A stretch of DNA of 40,702 bases from an uncultured Planctomycetia bacterium (GCA_964609315.1 CAZSRG010000003.1:2902-43603), one strand, 5' to 3'; shown: positions 11,162 to 35,854, counted from the first letter of the stretch. A program made the numbers and translations. Notes: generated by a model not told the origin, from the sequence alone.

Positions 11162-12181
11162 CTACGCAGGAGAATATACTTTAGCCTCAACCTCTTTCTT
11201 AATCTCTGATAAGAGAGCAGGATCATTCTTCAAAGACTCTTTACCAGCTTCCCTGCCCTGTCCTATCTTCTTATCCTTATAGGAAAACCAGCTCCCGGAC
11301 TTATTAACTACTCCTAATTCCACAGCGCAGTCAAGAAGGTTGCCTGTTTTTGAAACTCCTTCTGTATAAGTAATCTCAAAAAAAGCTTCCTTAAAAGGAG
11401 CTGCCACTTTATTCTTAACTATTTTAGCCCTGACCTTTGTCCCGATAATTGTATCCTTGTAAGGAATCGTCCCTATTTTTCTTAAATCTATCCTGACTGA
11501 CGAATAAAACTTTAAAGCTCTGCCTCCGGGAGTAACTTCGGGATTACCGAACATAACCCCTATCTTCATCCTTATCTGGTTAATAAATATCACACAGGTA
11601 TGCGATTTGCTTATCGCGGATGTAAGCTTCCTGAGAGCCTGGGACATTAACCTTGCCTGCAGGCCCATCTGGGCATCGCCCATATCTCCTTCAATCTCTG
11701 CCCGGGGAACTAAAGCCGCGACTGAATCAACCACTATTAAATCAACCGCATTTGAACGGACAAGAGTTTCGGTTATTTCCAGAGCCTGTTCACCGGTATC
11801 AGGCTGAGAAATAAGCAAATCATCTACATTAACCCCTATAACTTTAGAATAGGCGGGATCAAAAGCATGCTCAGCATCAATAAAAGCGGCTATCCCTTTG
11901 TTCTTCTGAGTTTCGGCAATAATACTCAAAGCTAAAGTAGTTTTGCCTGATGATTCCGGCCCGAATAATTCAATCACCCTCCCTTTGGGAACACCTCCTA
12001 TCCCCAAAGCCCGGTCAAGAGTAAGAATCCCCGTAGGCAAAAAACCAATATCTAATTTTGTAGACCCGTCAAGTTTCATTATTGACCCTTTACCAAACTG
12101 CTTTTCTATCTGAGATAAAGCTAAATCCAAAGCTTTCTTCCTGCTGTCTAACTCCTTCGGTTCCTTTGACTCTTTGTTCAT
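11162..12181 (-). CDS. recA: Recombinase RecA
   Basis: Motifs [29 protein letters not shown] and [36 protein letters not shown]. The gene ends in TAG. Confidence 0.97.
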
Positions 12182-12192
12182 AACTCCTCCTC

Positions 12193-12492
12193 AATGAGAC
12201 TGTGATTTTTTATTATTCCCAATAATAAAAAATCACTTAGTCGAATTGATCCCGTCGAAGGTTGGTAAATTGTCAACGATAATTTACCAACATCTTCTCT
12301 GAGACGGGATTACCTTAATATTTACAAATTAGCAAATGAGCGCACAACTTACAGAACGAAGTGATTGTAAGTTGTCTGCGCGAATTCCTGCCTGCCGAAG
12401 CTTCAGCGCAAGCAGGTATCCCGCCGAAGGCTGGTAAATTGTCAACGATAATTTACCAACATCTTCTCTGAGACGAGATTTCCTTAATAAAT
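12193..12492. repeat. Two units of the ~140-bp multi-hairpin repeat family (recA leader copy)
   Basis: Conserved scaffold AATGAG-[hairpin A]-GAATT.ATCCCG.CGAAGG-[hairpin B]-CATCTTCTCTGAG.CGGGATT.C.TTAATA. In the proximal unit, hairpin A is a different perfect 16-bp stem (12202-12236). The distal unit carries an extra AAGCTT-centred palindrome (12387-12417). Confidence 0.85.
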
Positions 12493-12518
12493 ATTCTTTC
12501 AAAACCAGACTGACAGGC

Positions 12519-12546
12519 ATTATATCAAAACAAGAAAGGTTGTCAA
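12519..12546 (-). promoter_or_regulatory. Consensus sigma-70 promoter upstream of the recA leader
   Basis: On the minus strand: TTGACA (12546-12541), a 16-nt spacer, then TATAAT (12524-12519). It lies between the plsY stop and the repeat units and predicts a ~330-nt recA 5' UTR. Confidence 0.6.
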
Positions 12547-17322: not shown

Positions 17323-17540
17323 TACCTCGCAGCAAGCTACGAGGTATCAAAAACTTTTCCAAAAAAGGAAACGCAGCAAGCTGCGGGGAATTAAACCCCA
17401 GATCCTTCGACTCCCTTCGGTCGCTCAGGATCAATTCGGCTATAGACTTTTTCTTCGAAAAAGTCTAAGTCTCATTGATTAAACCCGTTACCCTTGTTCC
17501 TTTATGTAACATTTCAGTTATCAACCAAAACGTTACATAA
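17323..17540. repeat. String of five stem-loops in the tyrA-cmk spacer
   Basis: Inverted repeats at 17323-17346, 17372-17385, 17401-17432, 17443-17467 (10-bp stem) and 17502-17540 (9-bp stem). Two share the word GCAGCAAGCT. Confidence 0.7.
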
Positions 17541-18433: not shown

Positions 18434-19450
18434 TCAAATACTCCTGTCCACAGCGGAAGAAATCTTAATCAAATCTTTCATCAATTTGGAAAAATTCTCC
18501 GGTATGAGCTGCTGGGGCCCGTCCGACAAAGCTTCTTCAGGATTAGAATGGACCTCAATCAATAACCCGTCAGCCCCGCAGGCAACAGCCGCTTTTGATA
18601 AAGAACTGACTAAACTCCATTTACCGGTAGCATGAGAAGGATCAACAATCACCGGTAAATGAGACAAATGTTTTATAACCGGGACAGCGCTTAAATCTAA
18701 AGTGTTCCGGGTAGCAGTTTCAAAAGTCCTAATGCCCCTCTCGCAGAAAATGACGTTAAAATTCCCTCCGGAAAGGATATACTCAGCGCTCATTAACAGT
18801 TCCTTAACTGTAGCGCTTAACCCCCGTTTTAACATAACCGGTTTCTTAGTCTGGCCTATTTCCTTTAAAAGGTTAAAATTCTGCATATTCCTCGCCCCAA
18901 CCTGAAGGATGTCGGCATATTTAGAAACAATCTCAACATCTCTGGTATCCATTACTTCAGTAACTGAAGCTAACCCTACTTGCTGAGATATATCCTTAAG
19001 TATTTCCAACCCCTTTTCCCCTAATCCCTGAAAACTGTAAGGAGAAGTCCTGGGTTTATAAGCGCCTCCTCTAAGCACTTTAGCTCCGGCCTGTTTCACT
19101 TTCAAGGCTACATCTAAAAACAGTTCTCTTGATTCTATTGAACACGGCCCGGCAATAACTATAACCTCTTTCCCTCCAAACTTTACTCCGGGAGAAACTT
19201 CAATAGTTGTTCCTTCAGGGCGAAAATCCCGGGAAACAAGCTTATAAGGAGCTAAGACCGGCATTACTTTGTCAACTCCGGGGAATACCTCTAAGGGCTT
19301 GACTCTCAAAATATCTTCAGGTCCGATTACCCCTACAATCGTCCGGTCTATTCCTTTAGACACCATGGTTTTTAATCCCAACTGTTCTACTTTTTCAATA
19401 ACATGGCTTATTTCTTTCTCTGTAGCACTTGACTTAAAAACAATTATCAT
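18434..19450 (-). CDS. aroF: 3-deoxy-7-phosphoheptulonate (DAHP) synthase, type I-beta with N-terminal regulatory domain
   Basis: Motifs GPCSIES, RGGAYKPRTSPYSFQGLG, LKRG and DPSHATG. A ~75-aa ACT/ferredoxin-like N-terminal domain is present. Confidence 0.9.
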   Translation of the reverse strand: MIIVFKSSATEKEISHVIEKVEQLGLKTMVSKGIDRTIVGVIGPEDILRVKPLEVFPGVDKVMPVLAPYKLVSRDFRPEGTTIEVSPGVKFGGKEVIVIAGPCSIESRELFLDVALKVKQAGAKVLRGGAYKPRTSPYSFQGLGEKGLEILKDISQQVGLASVTEVMDTRDVEIVSKYADILQVGARNMQNFNLLKEIGQTKKPVMLKRGLSATVKELLMSAEYILSGGNFNVIFCERGIRTFETATRNTLDLSAVPVIKHLSHLPVIVDPSHATGKWSLVSSLSKAAVACGADGLLIEVHSNPEEALSDGPQQLIPENFSKLMKDLIKISSAVDRSI

Positions 19451-19462
19451 TAACTCCTCCTA

Positions 19463-19602
19463 AATGAGGCCACAACTTATGGAGACCGAAGGGCGACATA
19501 AGTTGTCCGGCCGAATTTATCCCGCCGAAGGTTGGAAAATTGTAGTAATAGAATTTTCCAACATCTTCTCTGAGGCGGGATTTCCTTAATATTTACAAAT
19601 TT
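19463..19602. repeat. Single unit of the ~140-bp multi-hairpin repeat (aroF leader copy)
   Basis: It has the same scaffold as 12193-12492 and 24684-25140 and begins 3 nt beyond the aroF Shine-Dalgarno sequence. Confidence 0.85.
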
Positions 19603-19610
19603 ACAAAAGA

Positions 19611-19662
19611 GGGACAGCCCCCTTTTCTTTCAGGCTTTATTTTTAAAAAAGGGGGCTGTCCC
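19611..19662 (-). terminator. Probable intrinsic terminator of hisC
   Basis: Perfect 16-bp stem (GGGACAGCCCCCTTTT / AAAAGGGGGCTGTCCC) with a 20-nt loop that contains the hisC TAA stop. On the minus strand it is followed by TCTTTTG. Confidence 0.55.
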
Positions 19663-20749
19663 CTTTTAAAACATTTTTTAAGGCTTTAAGAAAAAACCGG
19701 TTTTCTTCTCTTTTGCCCACTGTTACCCTTATGAAATTATCCATTCCCCACGAGCTCATTTCTCTGACAATAACCCCTTTACGCAAAAGTTTGTTAAAAG
19801 CTTCCTTGGCTGACAAATTTCCTGAATCAATTAGGACAAAATTAGTAGCGCTCTTAACATACCTAATTCCAAGTTTATCCAAACTTCCATATATAAATTT
19901 CTTCTCTCTCTTTATATAATCAACGATTCTCTTAAGGTATACTTTGTCATTCAAAGCCGCTAAAGCCGCGGTCTGGGCTAATCTATTAACATTAAACGGC
20001 TCTCTTACTTTGTCCATCGCCTGAACTAAACTTTTCTTAGTAACTCCATACCCTATCCTCAAACCGGCTAATCCGTAAACCTTGGAGAAAGTACGGGTAA
20101 GAATTATATTGCTCCCTGCTTTCAGAAACTTTATACTCTTAGGAAAATCATTCGGCGCGAACTCAGAATACGCTTCATCAAAAAAGATCAAAGTATTACG
20201 GGGAACCTGTTTAAGAAAACTTCTTATCTCTTTATCCTTGAGATACGTCCCGTTGGGATTATCGGGATTAGCGATAAAGATTATCTTGGTTTTCTTAGTA
20301 ACCTTAGAAAGGATATCTTTTAAATCATACCTGAAATCTTTCAACCTGCTCCGGACAACTTTTATCCCGCAGGCTCTTGCCTGAATCTCGTAAATTAAGA
20401 ATGTAGGCCACCCGACAATTACCTCTTCGCCTCTCTCGACAAAAGCGCGCAGAGCCAAGACAATAAGCTCGTCAGAACCGTTGCCGAAGATAAGATTCTC
20501 TTTTCCTATCTTTAACTTCTTTGACAGAAATTCCTTTAGATAAAAGCTCCGGCTGTCAGGATAGAGGTTTATTCTCTTAAGATCTTGCCCTAAAGCCTTT
20601 ATGACTTTGCCCGAAGGAGGAAAAGGATTCTCGTTAGACGCCAGCTTAATTACTTTAGATAAACCCAATTCCCGTTTTACTTCTTCAATAGGCTTTCCCG
20701 GCGTATAGTTTTTTATCTTATCAAGCCCTTTTCGGACAATACCAGACAT
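19643..20749 (-). CDS. hisC: Histidinol-phosphate / aromatic aminotransferase (class II)
   Basis: Motifs LASNENPFPP, ANPDNPNG and FSKVYGLAGLRIGY. Confidence 0.85.
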   Translation of the reverse strand: MSGIVRKGLDKIKNYTPGKPIEEVKRELGLSKVIKLASNENPFPPSGKVIKALGQDLKRINLYPDSRSFYLKEFLSKKLKIGKENLIFGNGSDELIVLALRAFVERGEEVIVGWPTFLIYEIQARACGIKVVRSRLKDFRYDLKDILSKVTKKTKIIFIANPDNPNGTYLKDKEIRSFLKQVPRNTLIFFDEAYSEFAPNDFPKSIKFLKAGSNIILTRTFSKVYGLAGLRIGYGVTKKSLVQAMDKVREPFNVNRLAQTAALAALNDKVYLKRIVDYIKREKKFIYGSLDKLGIRYVKSATNFVLIDSGNLSAKEAFNKLLRKGVIVREMSSWGMDNFIRVTVGKREENRFFLKALKNVLKGDSPLF

Positions 20750-21825: not shown

Positions 21826-21861
21826 ATTATTATCCCCCTTATAAAAACTCTAAACAATTTC

Positions 21862-22110
21862 AAATATCAAATGTTCTAAATCCTAAACTCTTCAGCCATG
21901 GGCTGATCCGCCTCAGGCGGAAAACCTTAACCAAATCCTAAATCCTAATTTCTAAATCCTAAACAAATCCTAAATTTCAATTTCAAATGTTCTAAACTTT
22001 GTTTTGGACTTTGTGTTTTTCTGTTTTGAACATTTGATATTGCCTGCCCCGTAGTCAACCAAAGATTGTACTACAGAGTTTAGTATTTAGAATTTCGCGC
22101 TTAGGATTTA
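21862..22110. repeat. Word-repeat spacer forming a long imperfect inverted repeat
   Basis: AAATCCTAA occurs 5 times (21877-21975) with one inverted copy (22101-22109). AATATCAAATGTTC (21863-21876) pairs with GAACATTTGATATT (22028-22041). Small hairpins CAGCC-ATG-GGCTG and CCGCC-TCA-GGCGG are also present. Confidence 0.8.
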
Positions 22111-23910: not shown

Positions 23911-24669
23911 TTAATTGTCTTCGGCAGCAATTTCTTCCAAAATATCATCGGGTATGTCAAAATTCGCGTAAACATGCTGAACATCATCATGCGCCTCTAA
24001 AGCTTCAATAAGAGCAAGGAGCTGCTTTGCCGGCTGTCCTTCAACTTTAACTGTTGAGTTTGGAAGCATAGTCAATTCAGCCAATTCCAGATTCAGATTC
24101 TTTTCTTTAAGGACCTTCTTAACTAATTCCAGGTCTTTAGGATCAGTAATTATCTCAAAGTTATCTCCTTCGCTCTTAACATCCTCTGCTCCGGCCTCAA
24201 TAGCTAAATTAAGTAGGTCTTCCTCAGATATGGAGCTTTTATCCACTAAGATATACCCTTTTTTGACAAACTGCCAGGCAACGCTTCCGGAACCGGCCAG
24301 ATTGCCTGAACGTTTAGAAAAAATATTTCTTATTTCAGCCGATGCGCGGTTTTTATTATCAGTCAAAGCATCCACAAGAATAGCTGTCCCTCCGGGGCCG
24401 TATCCTTCAAACATACAGGATTCATAAGTTACACCCGGAAGCTCGCCTGTCCCGCGCTTAATAGCCTTATCAATATTATCTAATGGCATATTAGCATCTC
24501 TTGCTCTGTCAATCGCGGTCCTAAGGCTGGCATTTGTATCGGGGCTGCTTCCGCCGTCACGCGCGGCAACTGTTATCTCTCTAATAAGCTTGGTGAACAA
24601 CTTCCCCCGTTTAGCATCCTGAGCCGCTTTCTTATGTTTAATCCCTGCCCACTTTGAATGACCGGACAT
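23911..24669 (-). CDS. yebC: YebC/PmpR-family DNA-binding regulator
   Basis: Motif MSGHSKWAGIKHKKAAQDAKRGKLFTKLIREITVAAR. Confidence 0.9.
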   Translation of the reverse strand: MSGHSKWAGIKHKKAAQDAKRGKLFTKLIREITVAARDGGSSPDTNASLRTAIDRARDANMPLDNIDKAIKRGTGELPGVTYESCMFEGYGPGGTAILVDALTDNKNRASAEIRNIFSKRSGNLAGSGSVAWQFVKKGYILVDKSSISEEDLLNLAIEAGAEDVKSEGDNFEIITDPKDLELVKKVLKEKNLNLELAELTMLPNSTVKVEGQPAKQLLALIEALEAHDDVQHVYANFDIPDDILEEIAAEDN

Positions 24670-24683
24670 AATCTACCTCCCTA

Positions 24684-25140
24684 AATGAGGCCACAACTTA
24701 TGGAGTTCGAAGAACGACATAAGCTGTCTGGCCAAATTTATCCCGCCGAAGGCTGGAAAAATATCAAAGATATTTTTTCAACATCTTTTCTGAGGCGGGA
24801 TTACATTAATATTTACAAATTAGCAAATGAGCACACAACTTACAGAACGAAGTGATTGTAAGTTGTCTGTGCGAATTTATCCCGCCGAAGGTTGGTAAAT
24901 TGTCAACGATAATTTACCAACATCTTCTCTGAGGCGGGATTACATTAATATTTATAAATTAGCAAATGAGGCCACAACTTATGGAGTTCGAAGAACGACA
25001 TAAGCTGTCTGGCCGAATTCCTGCCTGCCGCTCGCCTCTCGGCGAAGCCGAGGGAAGCTTCAGCGCAAACAGGTATCCCGCTAAGCGTTAAGAAAGTATC
25101 AAAGATGATTTCCCAACATCTTTCGCGAAGCGGGATTTAA
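24684..25140. repeat. Three tandem units of the ~140-bp multi-hairpin repeat (yebC leader copy)
   Basis: Units begin with AATGAG at 24684, 24826 and 24965. The third unit carries a nested AAGCTT-type palindrome (25020-25074) and a degenerate hairpin B. Confidence 0.85.
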
Positions 25141-25396
25141 TTAACCCAAATAATGCGGTTAGCATTATTTGCCCGCCTGTGCCCGCAAGGGTATAGGGCC
25201 GACCCCATATTTTCCACTGGAAAAGTATGGCTTGTGCCCGCAAGGGTAAAAGGTCGGGGTTACCTAAGGGGAAAATGCTGTGTACTCTTTAATACAATCG
25301 CTGTTTAATGTAACTATTTAGGCCGCCGGGTATTATGAGCATTTTGCGCTCTCAAGTGCGAAGCCTGCCCTTAGGGTACAGCATTTTCCCGGTTAA
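25141..25396 (-). mobile_element. TTAA-flanked MITE-like element, copy 1
   Basis: TTAACCCAAATAATGC... ...GCATTTTCCCGGTTAA. The imperfect terminal inverted repeats are TTAACC-nnnAAnATGC. It is homologous to 27484-27712 and, inverted, to 35617-35854. Confidence 0.75.
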
Positions 25397-25403
25397 TATT
25401 TTA

Positions 25404-25805
25404 TCAACACCTATTCTTGGCTGCCTGTCTGGCCAATAAATCTGCCTGTTTATTCTCTTCTCTGCCTTTATGCAAAAGGCTTAACTTACCGATTAAACCT
25501 ACAAGGTGCTTCGCCAAAATATTCAGGGTATATAGCCTTTCGTTCTTAACTTTATATTTCCCCTTAACCTGCTGAACAACCAATTCACTGTCAGCATAAA
25601 CACTCACTTCCTCATCCTTCATAGACAATACTTCCTGAAGGGCTAAAATTAAAGCCATATACTCGGCAACGTTATTGGTAGTCTTCCCCAAATAAACTGA
25701 CTTCTGGCAGATAACCCTGCCTTTTCTATATATTACTACTCCTGCCCCGGCAGGGCCGGGATTACTTAATGAAGACCCGTCAACATATACTTCCAACATT
25801 ACCAC
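25404..25805 (-). CDS. rnhA: Ribonuclease HI
   Basis: 133 aa with VYVDGSSLSNPGPAGAGVV, TNNVAEYMALILAL, YADSELVVQQVKGKYKV and NKQADLLARQA (DEDD pattern). Confidence 0.85.
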   Translation of the reverse strand: MVMLEVYVDGSSLSNPGPAGAGVVIYRKGRVICQKSVYLGKTTNNVAEYMALILALQEVLSMKDEEVSVYADSELVVQQVKGKYKVKNERLYTLNILAKHLVGLIGKLSLLHKGREENKQADLLARQAAKNRC

Positions 25806-25879
25806 CTCTTAAATATCAGTGGATTTATAAATGACAAGAGACAAACCTGTCCCCGCGCGCAATACAAAAAAATTATGCT

Positions 25880-26605
25880 TCAGAGAGAAAAATCTTCCTC
25901 CAAATAAAGCATGCGGGCGCACATTTCGCACTGAACGATGTTTTTATACTGCTTAACCCGGTTACTCACTTCAGCAGGAAGAACCATATGGCACCCTCCG
26001 CATTTCCCTCCCTTAAGAGGGACCAATGCCATCCCCTGCCGGTTCTTGACAAGATGCTCATACTGAGAAAACAATTTGGGATCTATTCCTTTAACAAGAA
26101 TTCCCCGTTTATCTTTAAGAATATTAATTTTTGATCCGATTTTTTCCATCTCTTTCTCTTCTGCCATAATCTTATCCGCGGCTTTACGGCTATTCTCCGC
26201 CAATGATTTCTTTTTCATGTTTAATTCTTCAGATTTTTCATCAATCTCATCAAAGATACGTAATATCTCCTCTTCAATAACCGAAACATCGGATTTCAAA
26301 GAACTGATTTCTTTAAGTTTCGCGTCATATTCCTTATTGGTTTTTAACTGATAAAGCTGAGCCTGCGATTTACGGACAGCTTCTTCTTTAGAACTCAAAT
26401 CCATTTCTTTTTCTTTCTTTTTAATCTGGCCCTGTTTAAATTCCTCTTCTAAATCCGCCAATGATTTCTTGTTGGATTCGAGAACACTTTTCAGCTCAGC
26501 TATGACAGCCGGTTTAACAGAATTAAACTCTCTCTCTAACCGGTAAATATCTGAATCTATTGCCTGGACATCAATTAACTTGCGTATTTCATCTTTTAAA
26601 TCCAT
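25880..26605 (-). CDS. Coiled-coil protein with C-terminal C4 zinc ribbon (COG1579-like)
   Basis: A long heptad-rich region is followed by CGGCHMVLP...VQCEMCARMLY. Confidence 0.8.
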   Translation of the reverse strand: MDLKDEIRKLIDVQAIDSDIYRLEREFNSVKPAVIAELKSVLESNKKSLADLEEEFKQGQIKKKEKEMDLSSKEEAVRKSQAQLYQLKTNKEYDAKLKEISSLKSDVSVIEEEILRIFDEIDEKSEELNMKKKSLAENSRKAADKIMAEEKEMEKIGSKINILKDKRGILVKGIDPKLFSQYEHLVKNRQGMALVPLKGGKCGGCHMVLPAEVSNRVKQYKNIVQCEMCARMLYLEEDFSL

Positions 26606-26665
26606 TAAACAACCTTTTCTGAGTTTATACTACGACAATTTATTACTGCTTATATATTAATCCAA

Positions 26666-26739
26666 TGGGCAATGCCCGGGTCGAACGGGCGGCCTCGTCG
26701 ATGTGAACGACGCGCTCTAACCAACTGAGCTAATTGCCC
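26666..26739 (-). tRNA. tRNA-Val (anticodon CAC)
   Basis: Hand-folded 74-nt cloverleaf: GGGCAAT-TA-GCTC-AGTTGGTTA-GAGC-G-CGTCG-TTCACAT-CGACG-AGGCC-GCCCG-TTCGACC-CGGGC-ATTGCCC-A. No CCA is encoded. Confidence 0.85.
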
Positions 26740-26840
26740 ATATTATGCTTCGCATAATACACGGATTATCACAGATAAAAAACAGATTAACACAGATTTA
26801 TCCCAGATTTTCATTAGAAAAATCTGCCCGGAGGACAACA

Positions 26841-26905
26841 ACCCCGCCCCGATTATGATATCGGGGCTGCTCTAACCGGCCTGCTTTGAGTATTTCCTTC
26901 AAACG
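26841..26905 (-). other. tRNA-derived structured fragment A, immediately 3' of tRNA-CAU
   Basis: On the minus strand: TTTGA-AGGAAATAC-TCAAA hairpin, then GCAGGCCGGTTAGAGCAG (identical to the tRNA D-arm segment), then CCCCGAT-ATCATA-ATCGGGG hairpin. It is homologous to 27247-27312. Confidence 0.6.
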
Positions 26906-26979
26906 TGGGCCCGCAGGGACTCGAACCCCGGACCAATTGATTATGAGTCAACTGCTCTAACCGACTGAGCTACGGGCCC
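26906..26979 (-). tRNA. tRNA with CAU anticodon (elongator Met or lysidine-dependent Ile2)
   Basis: Hand-folded 74-nt cloverleaf: GGGCCCG-TA-GCTC-AGTCGGTTA-GAGC-A-GTTGA-CTCATAA-TCAAT-TGGTC-CGGGG-TTCGAGT-CCCTG-CGGGCCC-A. Initiator features are absent and no CCA is encoded. Confidence 0.85.
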
Positions 26980-26984
26980 TAGAT

Positions 26985-27236
26985 TTATCTGCCCACACTC
27001 TCAATAATCTGTTCAATAATATGACGACTCTTGAATCGTTTTAACTTCCGTTCTATTTCCCTCGCTTCAGTTAAACTATCGACTTCTTGGAAAAAAACAA
27101 GTCCTATCGGCAACATACGCCTTGTTGAATAAACCAATCCCTCTTTGTGCTGCCATAATCTCCTGTTAACATCTGAAATGCTGCCAATATAATATCTGTC
27201 ATCCCGATTACTTTTCAAAATATACACATATCCCAT
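26985..27236 (-). CDS. Small GIY-YIG nuclease-family protein (COG2827/URI-like)
   Basis: Sequence MGYVYILKSNRDDRYYIGSISDVNRRLWQHKEG...EAREIERKLK. I moved the start to the ATG at 27236, because the 11 upstream codons in the track translate the tRNA-like fragment. No clear Shine-Dalgarno sequence is present. Confidence 0.75.
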   Translation of the reverse strand: MGYVYILKSNRDDRYYIGSISDVNRRLWQHKEGLVYSTRRMLPIGLVFFQEVDSLTEAREIERKLKRFKSRHIIEQIIESVGR

Positions 27237-27246
27237 TTGTAAACAT

Positions 27247-27331
27247 AACCCCGGACCAAACCCGATCATGACATCGGGGCTGGTCTAACCGGCCTGTCCC
27301 AAGTATTCCCTCGGGGCTGAGCTATGGGCCC
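27247..27331 (-). pseudogene. Truncated, diverged tRNA 5' copy (fragment B) with a 25-nt D-loop insertion
   Basis: On the minus strand: GGGCCCATAGCTCAG-[CCCCGAGGGAATACTTGGGACAGGC]-CGGTTAGACCAG-CCCCGATGTCATGATCGGG-TTTGGTCCGGGGTT. It stops in the T-stem exactly where the GIY-YIG cassette starts. Confidence 0.6.
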
Positions 27332-27483
27332 GATATGGCAAATGGCGGATAGCTTATGGCTAATACTAATACCAAATCTTTGTAATCACAATCCAATCTC
27401 TGCAATCAGAGGCTGTTGTATTCTTCAACGGTCTCATAATCCTAAAAATTATAACAAAGATTATAATTATATCAAGATTTATA

Positions 27484-27712
27484 TTAACCCAAATATTCAC
27501 CCGAATAATGCGGTTAGCATTATTTACCCGCCTGTGCCCGTAAGGGTATAAGAGTATAAGGGTAAAAGGCCGGGGAGACCTAAGGGAAAAATGCTGTGCA
27601 CTTTTTAGTACAGTTTTTGCTTAGTGCAACTATTTAGGCTGCCAAGTGTTATAAACATTTCGCACTTTCAAGTGCGAAGCCTGCCCTTAGGGTACAGCAT
27701 TTTCCCGGTTAA
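27484..27712 (-). mobile_element. TTAA-flanked MITE-like element, copy 2
   Basis: It has the same ends and core as copy 1 and lacks about 45 nt of the left-hand hairpin region. Confidence 0.75.
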
Positions 27713-27750
27713 TCCGAGATTGAGCTGTCAACGCAGATGTATGACTAAAA

Positions 27751-29349
27751 TTACGAGGAAAATCTGCAGGTAATAGGCATACGCCGGTCTTTGCCGAAAG
27801 ATTTGGGAGTAATTTTTATCCCCGGCGGAGACTGCCTGCGTTTATATTCATTCCTATCTACCATAGAAAGAATCTTCCGGACAACCTTCGGATCAAACCC
27901 CTTCTTAATAATATCTCTGCGGCATTCGTCTTTTTCAATATACAGTTTAAGTATTTTATCAAGCAAAGGATAAGGAGCCAGCTCGTCTTCATCTTTCTGG
28001 TTAGGTTTGAGCTCTGCCGAAGGAGGGCGCTTTATAATTGACTGGGGAATAACCTTTTTCCGGTTAATTTTGTTAATAAACGATGCTAATTTATAAACTT
28101 TGGTTTTATATACATCTTTAAGGACTCCAAACCCTCCTACCATATCTCCATATAGAGTACAGTAACCCACAGAGACCTCGCTCTTATTTCCGGTGTTAAG
28201 TACTAAGTACCCTTCCTGATTTGAGAAAGACATAAGGATATTCCCTCTTATCCTTGCCTGAAGATTCTGAGCCGCTAAGCTGAACCCGCTAAAATGAGAA
28301 AAAGATGACAACTCCTTTGTAAAAGAATCATAAATATTATTAATAGAAATAACACAGTTCTTGACTCCCAAATTCCCGCAGACTTTAACCGCGTCAGATA
28401 AGGTCTCTTTAGATGTATACTGTGAAGGCATAATTACGCCTAAGACATTCTCTCTGCCTAAAGCAGCTTTAGCAATAGCCAAAGTAAGAGCGGAATCAAT
28501 CCCTCCGCTTACGCCCACTACAACTTTCTCAAAGTTATTCTTTGAAACATAATCTTTAACCCCCAAAACCAAAGCCCTGTAGATGTCTTCAACTGTATTA
28601 TGCCTTAATTTAACCGGGCGGTATTTCTTCTGAGTATCAAAGATTATAAGGTCTTCAGAAAAACGCCTGCCCTGAATAATAGTTTTACCTTGAGGATTAA
28701 TAACCATGCTTGTTCCGTCAAAAATTAGTTCATCCTGAGCGCCGGCCAAATTACAATAGAGAATAAAGCTGTTCATCTTCTTTGCCCTGCCGGCCAGGAG
28801 ACTTTTACGCAGGCTGAGTTTTCCCGAATAGAAAGGCGACGCGGAAAGGTTAACTACTAAATCAGGATTTTCCCTCTTCAGGCCGGAGACAACAGTTTCA
28901 CCCCAAATATCCTCACAAATAGTAAGGCCTATCTTTATATCTTCATCAACATAAACGGTAATATCTTTCCCGGGATGAAAATACCTCTTCTCATCAAAAA
29001 CGCCGTAATTAGGAAGGAGTATCTTTGAATAAACGTCTCTTACCTTCCCTCCTGATAAAACTCCCGCTGAGTTAAAGGCTCTCTCCTCACTCTGATAAAC
29101 AAAACCCGCGATAACAACCATTCTCCCTCTAACTTCCCGGGAAAGTCTATTTATATATTTACGGTTAGCTTTAATAAAAGATGGTTTAAACAATAAATCC
29201 TCAGGAGGGTATCCGCAGAGAGAAAGTTCAGGAAAGATTAGAAGGCTTATGCCTTTTCTTAAAGATTCTTTTATAATCTTTCTCATCTTAGAAAAATTAT
29301 ATTCGAAATCTCCGACAACAGGATTAATCTGAGCCAGCGCTATTTTCAT
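27751..29349 (-). CDS. nadE: Glutamine-dependent NAD+ synthetase
   Basis: N-terminal CN-hydrolase domain (MKIALAQINP, FPEL, TICEDIW) and a C-terminal PP-loop domain (GVSGGIDSA). I set the start at the ATG at 29349. Confidence 0.9.
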   Translation of the reverse strand: MKIALAQINPVVGDFEYNFSKMRKIIKESLRKGISLLIFPELSLCGYPPEDLLFKPSFIKANRKYINRLSREVRGRMVVIAGFVYQSEERAFNSAGVLSGGKVRDVYSKILLPNYGVFDEKRYFHPGKDITVYVDEDIKIGLTICEDIWGETVVSGLKRENPDLVVNLSASPFYSGKLSLRKSLLAGRAKKMNSFILYCNLAGAQDELIFDGTSMVINPQGKTIIQGRRFSEDLIIFDTQKKYRPVKLRHNTVEDIYRALVLGVKDYVSKNNFEKVVVGVSGGIDSALTLAIAKAALGRENVLGVIMPSQYTSKETLSDAVKVCGNLGVKNCVISINNIYDSFTKELSSFSHFSGFSLAAQNLQARIRGNILMSFSNQEGYLVLNTGNKSEVSVGYCTLYGDMVGGFGVLKDVYKTKVYKLASFINKINRKKVIPQSIIKRPPSAELKPNQKDEDELAPYPLLDKILKLYIEKDECRRDIIKKGFDPKVVRKILSMVDRNEYKRRQSPPGIKITPKSFGKDRRMPITCRFSS

Positions 29350-35616: not shown

Positions 35617-35854
35617 TTAACCGGGAAAATGCTGTACCCTAAGGGCAGGCTTCGCACTTGAAAGTGCGAAATGTTTATAATACTTGGCAGCCTAAATAGT
35701 TGCATTAAGCAAAAACTGTACTAAAAAGTGCACAGCATTTTCCCCTTAGGTAACCCCGACCTTTTACCCTTGCGGGCACAAGCCATACTTTTCCAGTGGA
35801 AAATATGGGGTCGGCCCTACGGGCAAATAATGCTAACTGCATTATTTGAGTTAA
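35617..35854 (+). mobile_element. TTAA-flanked MITE-like element, copy 3 (inverted relative to copies 1 and 2)
   Basis: TTAACCGGGAAAATGCTGTACCCTAAGGGCAGGC ... CAAATAATGCTAACTGCATTATTTGAGTTAA. It lies between the mscS-family stop and the cvpA start. Confidence 0.75.

Follow-up and report, generated by a model that had tools for sequence, protein, structure and literature searches.

Neisseria REP2 and the Borrelia plasmid IR are interspersed repeats of ~100–150 bp that lack terminal inverted repeats and contain two stem-loops; placed directly before unrelated genes and oriented with them, they run into the ribosome-binding site (RBS) (PMC3184786). REP2 has been described with a promoter, an RBS and an ATG, and it marks a co-regulated gene set in Neisseria (PMC3184786). 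Mycobacterial interspersed repetitive units (MIRU) are tandem direct repeats in the intercistronic spacers of operons, oriented with the genes and touching stop and start signals with their ends (PMC3184786). The pneumococcal BOX element is assembled from boxA–boxB(n)–boxC modules in variable number, has a stable structure, is co-transcribed and can alter expression; REP/BIME, ERIC and Correia repeats are palindromic or mosaic and are transcribed within operons, where they influence the stability or processing of mRNA by way of 3' protection, RNase E sites or RNase III sites (PMC3049150).

The family that we describe here, from the window (the whole 40,702-nt stretch of DNA that was analysed), is closest in organisation to REP2 and the Borrelia IR, with two stem-loops, no terminal inverted repeats and a position upstream of open reading frames (ORFs); this likeness, between unrelated phyla and with REP2 known here by its description, is one of organisation only. 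REP2 has a promoter, whereas our family has no detectable one and a Shine–Dalgarno sequence (SD) that is at least partly native in appearance, and REP2 has not been reported as tandem arrays of shuffled modules or as intercistronic, both of which hold for this family. BOX, MIRU and REP/BIME come next in closeness. Like BOX, the family is modular, with a variable number of modules and stable secondary structure, but BOX has terminal inverted repeats and target duplications, which this family lacks, and occurs in several contexts and both orientations, with over-representation between convergent genes, whereas our units keep to one fixed context. Co-oriented tandem units in intercistronic spacers are shared with MIRU, which differs in its length of 40–100 bp, in its small ORFs that overlap flanking genes and give translational coupling (no conserved ORF exists in our units) and in not being built of long covarying hairpins. 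REP/BIME consist of palindromes of 20–40 nt, mostly 3' of genes, in inverted pairs and with RAYT partners (REP-associated tyrosine transposases, Y1-type HUH enzymes), whereas our units are ~140 nt long, in direct orientation throughout and always 5' of a gene. ERIC and Correia, unlike this family, have terminal inverted repeats and occur in both orientations, and none of REP/BIME, ERIC and Correia is locked to the 5' edge of an SD.

Integron attC sites, too, are imperfect palindromes in which structure and extra-helical bases are conserved while sequence varies, and they lie upstream of the next gene in one orientation. The TACCAAC/GTTGGTA of our family does not, however, fit the attC core R''/R' (RYYYAAC/GTTRRRY), and the attC context is gene cassettes, whereas these units stand in tandem, without intervening ORFs, among syntenic housekeeping genes. 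IS200/IS605-derived PATEs have similar subterminal hairpins at both ends and insert 3' of a fixed 4–5-nt target without duplication. In our family there are subterminal hairpins and no duplication, but the two hairpins (A and B, below) are dissimilar and the conserved GGAGG flank lies 3' of the gene-sense strand. The family fails the defining features of REP2 (promoter), BOX and MITEs (terminal inverted repeats, duplication), MIRU (ORF) and REP (inverted 3' pairs), and its nucleotide-exact, oriented placement, seen in 21 of 21 arrays, is stricter than in any of these analogues.

Hairpin units upstream of recA, aroF and yebC

Six units are present in the window, three upstream of yebC, two upstream of recA and one upstream of aroF, essentially where a preliminary description of this DNA had placed them. 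All are on the minus strand, the single orientation of every gene in the window, and the genes flanking the arrays encode RecA, PlsY, DAHP synthase, HisC, YebC and RNase HI. A repeat finder recovered the units as families of 65–143 nt, and their core 21-mer, CATCTTCTCTGAGGCGGGATT, occurred five times at no more than three mismatches, compared with 0.00 expected in shuffles.

Read in gene sense, a unit of ~140 nt consists of an AT-rich leader, hairpin B, a linker, hairpin A and a terminus, and arrays contain one to five stacked units. The leader has the form (TTGACA/TTTGTA)AATATTAAGGAA and reads ...TTTGTAAATATTAAGGAA. Hairpin B, of 62 nt, has three helices: a basal P1 (AUCCCGCC/GGCGGGAU); above it, after a conserved 5-nt bulge UCAGA, a helix GAAG/CUUC with an internal loop AUG/C; and at the top a variable 10-bp helix with its loop. 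The linker (A/C)AAUUCG leads into hairpin A, in which a 4-bp base and a 2-nt 5' bulge are followed by a 10-bp stem (range 10–16 bp) and a small apical helix, and the unit terminates, in RNA letters, in CUCAUU(U/G). An optional G+C-rich hairpin, module C, occupies the linker of yebC unit 3 and of recA unit 2. The hairpin A and B sequence variants reported earlier are real. Several stretches that had been taken for conserved single-stranded connectors are, on the other hand, paired: ATCCCGCC/GGCGGGAT and GAAG/CTTC are the two basal helices of hairpin B, which themselves covary (CC/GG, TC/GA, CT/AG), and ATCCCGCCGAAGG and CATCTTCTCTGAGGCGGGATT are the two strands of the hairpin B base.

Upstream of yebC, the SD AGGGAGG with its spacer and ATG (24667..24682) directly follows the CTCATTT of the proximal unit 1 (24683..24824; covariance-model match 24684–24801, 125 bits), whose AT-rich leader, hairpin B (24740–24801), AAATTT linker and hairpin A (24689–24733) precede that terminus in gene sense. 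Unit 2 (24825..24963; match 24826–24940, 122 bits) has a hairpin A of the ACAACTTACA type. The distal unit 3 (24964..25145) has a hairpin A identical to that of unit 1, module C at ~25021–25073 and a variant hairpin B, B* (25075–25136); the 258 nt immediately distal of the array (25146–25400) belong to a different repeat family. The recA SD AGGAGG, spacer and ATG (12179..12191) directly follow the CTCATTG of the proximal recA unit (12192..12333; match 12193–12310, 130 bits). Its hairpin A is a variant with a 16-bp AT-rich stem, which the preliminary description had noted as unrelated in sequence and which retains the 4-bp base and 2-nt bulge. The distal recA unit (12334..12497; match 12335–12479) carries module C at 12388–12417, between hairpins B and A. 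The single aroF unit (19462..19605; match 19463–19581, 129 bits) is placed between a terminator-like palindrome and the aroF SD, AGGAGG with spacer AGTTA and ATG (19448..19461), which again comes directly after CTCATTT.

The predicted RNA fold of a single unit agrees with this model (−57 kcal/mol, z-score −4.3), and in it CUCAUU(K) and the SD are predicted to stay outside both unit hairpins. Folds of whole tandem arrays were uninformative, being dominated by inter-unit pairing of identical palindromes. Inspection of hairpin B for K-turn or hammerhead-like cores found neither, and there is no conserved ORF in the units; an ATG-initiated frame occurs in one hairpin A variant only and is missing in the other two, and a conserved uORF in hairpin A was rejected on that ground.

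Placement, distribution and covariation

We searched with a strict two-part pattern through one genome per species for 185,579 species, and through viral contigs and metagenomes. The pattern gave 0 matches in the 185,579 species genomes and 0 in the viral contigs, and matched 19 metagenome loci, 18 in sample Ga0164318 and one in sample Ga0164310. None of the 19 overlaps the window, so that they are other parts of the same population; their contigs contain ~30 further unique units, and 36 unique units were extracted, in ~290 kb. Homologues of RecA, YebC and pyruvate:ferredoxin oxidoreductase (PFOR) place the organism in Candidatus Omnitrophota, with a best RecA match to a species representative of 74%, and exact-protein look-ups of the window YebC and AroF returned no record.

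The proximal end lies on the contig in 21 arrays, three in the window and 18 elsewhere. All 21 end in CTCATT[G/T], and in 20 an AGGAG-type SD follows directly, the exception (L010) having its SD a few bases further on. A start codon comes 8–18 nt past the array end in every case and opens a real ORF in 20 of the 21, the remaining ORF being cut by the locus end, and the orientation of the array is that of the gene throughout (21/21). The abutment on the SD in gene orientation, first described for the three window loci, holds there and generalises to this whole set. A link to core genes had also been proposed, and here the larger sample disagrees, as the downstream genes are functionally unrelated: isocitrate/isopropylmalate-type dehydrogenase, ClpC, DEAD-box helicase, MetE, AroC, C-terminal protease, YajC, PFOR, ferredoxin, NifU, acyl-CoA dehydrogenase, a pilin-like protein, RecA, AroF and YebC. 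Most arrays start 0–100 nt past the stop codon of a co-directional upstream ORF and are therefore intercistronic, often between two genes that abut or overlap in element-free relatives. The recA array starts ~30 nt downstream of a perfect sigma-70 consensus promoter (TTGACA-N16-TATAAT, 12/12 with TG; 12519..12546, minus strand), which places it in the recA 5' untranslated region (UTR). Internal junctions of arrays have no GGAGG or SD. A second repeat family, with a core at 17402..17476 on the plus strand, shares a GGAT-CAATTCG-[bulged hairpin]-TCTCATTGA module with the first; it is antisense to its flanking genes and followed by TTAAA, with no SD adjacency, so the SD rule belongs to family 1 and not to all repeats of the genome.

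Covariation was tested on 31 unique units, aligned with a hand-written structure, against 500 shuffles. Standard pairs filled 95.7% of cells compared with 82.9% in shuffles, 24 of 40 pairs showed changes on both sides, and the covariation score of 0.388 (0.158 in shuffles) was reached by 0 of the 500; controls with slid partners gave 34–48% pairing. RNAalifold independently predicted identical helices, and P1 of hairpin B covaries, with CG→UA at two positions. That pairing is kept while stem sequences change, as had been claimed from the six window units, is confirmed by these numbers. A functional RNA cannot, however, be concluded from structure that is conserved while sequence varies, given strand-neutral palindromes, no G·U excess, shuffled modules, orthologous units less alike than paralogous ones and the patchy size and presence of arrays, all of which are typical of a repeat in active propagation. 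The unit stems are near-perfect DNA palindromes that fold equally on either strand (mean folding energy of hairpin B −26.3 kcal/mol in gene sense and −27.0 in antisense), and non-Watson–Crick pairs showed no excess of G·U (28 G·U, 20 A·C); in this strand test for RNA-level selection, neither folding energy nor G·U versus A·C showed a significant asymmetry. Mismatched variants common to at least three loci are exclusively G·U on the gene-sense strand, a mild hint of RNA-level selection. The variation consists of a few discrete module variants, shuffled among units, arrays and loci. Strand-neutral pairing and recombined module variants mean that the covariation shows that only hairpin-forming masters propagate; it does not show RNA as the selected molecule.

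Turnover among relatives and the boundaries of the insert

A covariance model built from the 31 units recovered all units at 97–141 bits and gave no match on other Omnitrophota loci (L020, L022, L023, L102–L104 and L106). Relatives were reached through homologue searches. In GCA_021162445.1 (locus L102), with a YebC 80% identical to that of the window, gene order is conserved and the element is missing: RNase HI and yebC abut (GGTTAGATG), and hisC overlaps aroF by ATGA, so that the SD falls within the upstream gene. A closer relative (loci L100, L101 and L105; 89% DNA identity) has one unit at yebC, orthologous to the window unit that carries hairpin B*, compared with three units, module C and the 258-nt insert of another family in the window. 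It also has orthologous units at aroF (L100) and at the ferredoxin gene, with different hairpin variants, and no unit upstream of the PFOR gene. Orthologous units are 77–82% identical, the best paralogues within a genome 89–93% and the flanking genes 89%; orthologous units that are less alike than paralogues indicate concerted evolution or replacement and not locus-specific conservation. Together, these comparisons show a lineage-specific family that varies in copy number and is homogenised within genomes.

Units have no terminal inverted repeats, the 5' end TTGACAAATATTAAGG being unrelated to the reverse complement of the 3' end AATGAGGCC. Local alignment of left and right flanks of 18 arrays gave no sign of a target-site duplication (mean score 11.06 for true and 11.21 for mismatched pairs; permutation p=0.63), and a duplicated target site or initiation region, suggested by flank pairs that looked similar by eye at several loci (L014, L016b and L019), was rejected by the same test (p=0.63). 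The lack of terminal inverted repeats and of flank duplication bears out the earlier view that this is not a decaying MITE. The window proteins and the multi-copy ORFs of the ~290 kb sampled included no transposase, recombinase or reverse transcriptase, and no Y1, Y2 or RAYT gene; multi-copy ORFs were considered as transposase candidates, and none was found in the sampled loci. Rfam 15 returned tRNAs only at the gathering threshold and, in E-value mode over 24600–27800, nothing below E=1 on the units, in agreement with the preliminary description, which had recognised no described ncRNA.

The evidence on the origin of the SD points both ways: the element may bring it along or may only lie beside it. 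At yebC, SD and spacer are similar to their counterparts in the element-free L102, the filled site reading AACAGG[TGTTGATAAAATATTAA...CTCATTT]AGGGAGGTAGATTATG and the empty site AACAGGAGGGTTAGATG, which suggests that the unit inserted at the upstream border of a native SD or inside it. At the PFOR locus, homology between the element-bearing and element-free versions starts exactly at AGGAGG; farther upstream the two relatives share no homology, which leaves the proximal boundary as the only readable one, and a clean empty site was rejected. These two boundaries favour a native SD. On the other side, recA and aroF have an identical SD and spacer, AGGAGGAGTTA; perfect AGGAGG occurs in 10 of 14 element-bearing genes compared with 12 of 66 other genes with a strong SD; and at aroF, where hisC in the window reads 11 codons into an inserted palindrome, a remnant of the ancestral hisC–aroF junction, AAAAAATG, persists upstream of the insert. 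The remnant, the identical AGGAGGAGTTA and the AGGAGG enrichment speak for an SD that was imported or for strong targeting. Three causes could lie behind the exact abutment: GGAGG as a preferred target, selection, in a compact genome, against every other position, or an SD carried by the element.

The leader was also considered as a promoter. TTGACA precedes TATTAA at a distance of 2–5 nt in half of the distal-most units (8 of 16) and in no internal unit (0 of 17). No unit has a −10-like hexamer 16–18 nt past TTGACA, and consensus scans found no sigma-70 promoter within units. In four arrays the TGA of TTGA(C/T)A/TGTGA is the stop codon of the upstream gene; TTGACA as an upstream stop codon in general was rejected, since this is true of those four arrays only.

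Explanations of the placement

What is shown is an interspersed modular hairpin repeat in transcribed spacers, immediately 5' of the SD. It is a known kind of bacterial repeat, distinguished by its exact, orientation-locked placement and its shuffled, covarying hairpin modules. The best reading is that the family is co-transcribed in leaders and intercistronic spacers and is not a locus-specific regulatory RNA. We consider it probable that this is a young, lineage-specific mosaic hairpin-forming interspersed repeat of the REP2/BOX/BIME/ERIC/MIRU kind, in an uncultured Omnitrophota bacterium, which spreads and acts as follows. Unit DNA would still be copied or converted among loci within each genome, and the spread would take place at the DNA level, by candidate routes such as single-strand HUH-type transposition or recombination or gene conversion between arrays. 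Only palindromic masters would propagate, with hairpins either needed for propagation or simply copied, and pairing would for this reason be kept while sequence changes. An array placed in a transcribed spacer would be co-transcribed as a 5' leader or intercistronic RNA, and its very stable stem-loops in the mRNA could act as insulators or stabilisers, uncoupling the downstream RBS from the sequence that precedes it and from translation of the preceding gene and replacing translational coupling with independent initiation. The stem-loops may also protect from RNases or direct RNA processing, and effects on mRNA protection and processing are documented for REP/BIME, ERIC, Correia and BOX (PMC3049150). 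The precise abutment would then reflect specificity, at insertion or in retention, for the 5' border of GGAGG.

Several observations count against this repeat reading: no mobilising enzyme was found in the window or among the multi-copy ORFs of the ~290 kb, and there is no terminal inverted repeat or duplication; the exact placement in 21 of 21 arrays, the AGGAGG enrichment and the gene-sense G·U variants are further points; and the strictly conserved unpaired UCAGA, AAGAUG, AAUU and CUCAUU would equally fit a selected RNA–protein interaction. A rival is a dedicated cis-regulatory RNA operator: a single RNA-binding protein or RNase would bind hairpins A and B, 7 nt ahead of the SD, and control translation or stability of all element-bearing genes together as a post-transcriptional regulon, with mobility secondary. 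Exact placement and orientation in all 21 arrays would suit such an operator, as would the invariance of unpaired nucleotides beside covarying stems, the 4-bp base and 2-nt bulge that persist where the hairpin sequence is unrelated, the gene-sense G·U wobble variants at three or more loci and the precedent of Neisseria REP2, which marks a co-regulated gene set (PMC3184786). We nevertheless think it unlikely: the genes concerned (recA, aroF, aroC, yebC, clpC, metE, PFOR, yajC, the pilin-like gene and others) have no common function, near relatives lacking the family do without it at the same genes, and the one to five units per gene differ in number between close relatives. Orthologous units, moreover, diverge faster than flanking genes and paralogues, and neither an overall G·U excess nor a strand bias in stability is seen. 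The distal TTGACA, found before TATTAA in half of the distal-most units and in no internal one, could be read as the promoter of a portable, REP2-like expression cassette that also has its own RBS and would make the downstream gene a transcription unit of its own; the aroF unit, which comes after a terminator-like hairpin that leaves space for a promoter nowhere else, the remnant AAAAAATG upstream of its insert, the AGGAGGAGTTA shared by recA and aroF and the frequency of AGGAGG at element-bearing genes are in its favour. A −10-like hexamer at the proper distance is, however, missing and scans find no unit promoter, four arrays use the TGA as the stop codon of the upstream gene, recA is preceded by a perfect promoter of its own, outside its array, SD and spacer at yebC seem native, the similarity with the element-free PFOR locus sets in exactly at AGGAGG, and internal junctions have no SD, all of which make a cassette very unlikely.

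The lack of terminal inverted repeats and of a target-site duplication recalls single-strand transposition. A non-autonomous HUH-type element (an IS200/IS605 PATE, a RAYT-mobilised REP or an IS91-like element), with subterminal hairpins recognised as folded single-stranded DNA and integrating beside the asymmetric GGAGG/CCTCC, would explain both of these absences and the fixed orientation. Each end of a unit has a hairpin nearby with conserved bulged nucleotides, the stems, as palindromes, favour neither strand, the CTCATT(K) end is fixed exactly and the distal end variable, and family 2 has the 3' module in common but TTAAA as its 3' flank. The two hairpins are, however, unlike each other, whereas the ends of IS200/IS605 elements carry similar hairpins (IS608/ISDra2), the conserved flank is 3' of the gene-sense strand, and taking the antisense strand as the top strand would give the leading-strand template, opposite to the known preference; with internal array junctions that have no GGAGG, and no Y1, Y2 or RAYT gene in the sampled DNA, we regard this origin as quite improbable. 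A more speculative proposal, which we hold as a doubtful one, is that the element is directed to the SD itself: either an integration machinery reads GGAGG/CCTCC, by protein contact or anti-SD-like base pairing, and inserts 1 nt upstream, or the unit is a domesticated, portable leader for translation initiation through which a dedicated hairpin-binding factor sets the expression of dozens of unrelated genes. In either form, tight operons would have been broken into separately initiated cistrons in an Omnitrophota lineage.

If the placement rule holds genome-wide, nature would offer here its cleanest example of a repeat family restricted to the nucleotide just 5' of the RBS. It would show how hairpin DNA, selfish or semi-domesticated, can part genes that overlap and are translationally coupled, so that each has its own initiation, and it would point to a mobile element that targets the SD or to a portable mRNA leader module.

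At least five other hairpin repeat families occur in the genome, one of which shares a 3' module with family 1; with family 1 there are at least six, which documents heavy repeat colonisation in a candidate phylum known from metagenomes alone. Several contigs end inside units, and these repeats break assemblies.

A hexamer at the distal ends of unit arrays

The motif TTGACA, 2–5 nt 5′ of the leader TATTAA, was present in 8 of the 16 distal-most units of the studied family, compared with none of the 17 internal units. These cases came from metagenome loci of the window's own Omnitrophota population (L003, L005, L007, L012, L013, L014 and, in two arrays, L016), and a close relative with 89% DNA identity (L100) carries TTGATA instead (1300–1318). 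A −10 partner for the distal-end TTGACA was sought in the studied-family units and none was found; in the most frequent variant of hairpin B, the loop is also TTGACA.

Two further repeat families

A repeat of ~258 nt, which is a family separate from the two-hairpin units, occurs in the window at 25146–25400 (+), 27495–27713 (+) and 35617–35854 (−), with further copies in L003, L008, L010, L011, L013, L016, L018 and L019. Copies are found in both orientations and share 74–96% identity. At yebC, the distal unit has a copy within its leader (TATTAA|...|TTAA-ATCCCG); L100 lacks the repeat there. Nothing matching the family was found in Rfam; possible identities are a MITE-like element and a structured RNA.

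Family 2, with one window copy at about 17330–17484 (+; core 17402–17476) and 10 further copies in L001, L007, L010, L014, L016, L017 and L018, is built as a chain of 4–5 hairpins. It has in common with the studied family the module GGAT-CAATTCG-[bulged hairpin]-TCTCATTGA, but its 3′ flank is (A)TTAAA, not a Shine–Dalgarno sequence (SD). The window copy lies antisense to tyrA/cmk. Compared with L100 and with a ~80% relative without the studied family (L102; GCA_021162445.1), it is an insertion.

Palindromes and short repeats

The long palindrome GGGGACAGCCCCC-T6...A6-GGGGGCTGTCCC, with a T-rich tail, lies at 19606–19665 in the window, 6255–6314 in L100 and 1099–1146 in L008. It is terminator-like when read on the gene strand, hisC extends 11 codons into it, and in L008 its end is 5 nt upstream of the SD of another gene. 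Another palindrome, AAATGCAAC...GTTGCATTT, is repeated among loci of the window population (L011, 6942–6980; L012, 11506–11544; L015, 191–229 and 1559–1597), taking the place of the distal half of one hairpin B in L015 and lying immediately distal to a studied-family array in L011. Short AAATCCTAAAC-type repeats, dispersed and in tandem, occupy the scpB–pheA spacer (21840–21990), and fragments of them occur at at least ten other loci.

Relatives and neighbouring genes

In other Omnitrophota without the studied family, unrelated hairpins still stand directly 5′ of the SD, for example TTGACACGAAGTGTCAA-AAGGAGG upstream of a ferredoxin gene (L106, 4085–4125), and a long structured recA leader downstream of a perfect promoter (L020, 2700–2985). 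Hairpins near the SD may be a broader habit across the phylum.

In the close relative, a VapB/VapC (PIN) toxin–antitoxin pair separates PFOR from the ferredoxin-proximal unit (L105, 4236–4825); the window population's corresponding locus, L016, lacks this pair. Within the window, a 94-aa ORF with a GIY-YIG nuclease domain (26985–27269) is flanked or followed by two minus-strand tRNA genes (26906–26979 and 26666–26739), and this region (26666–27320) holds a 51-nt segment twice, at 26848–26898 and 27261–27311, with 82% identity.
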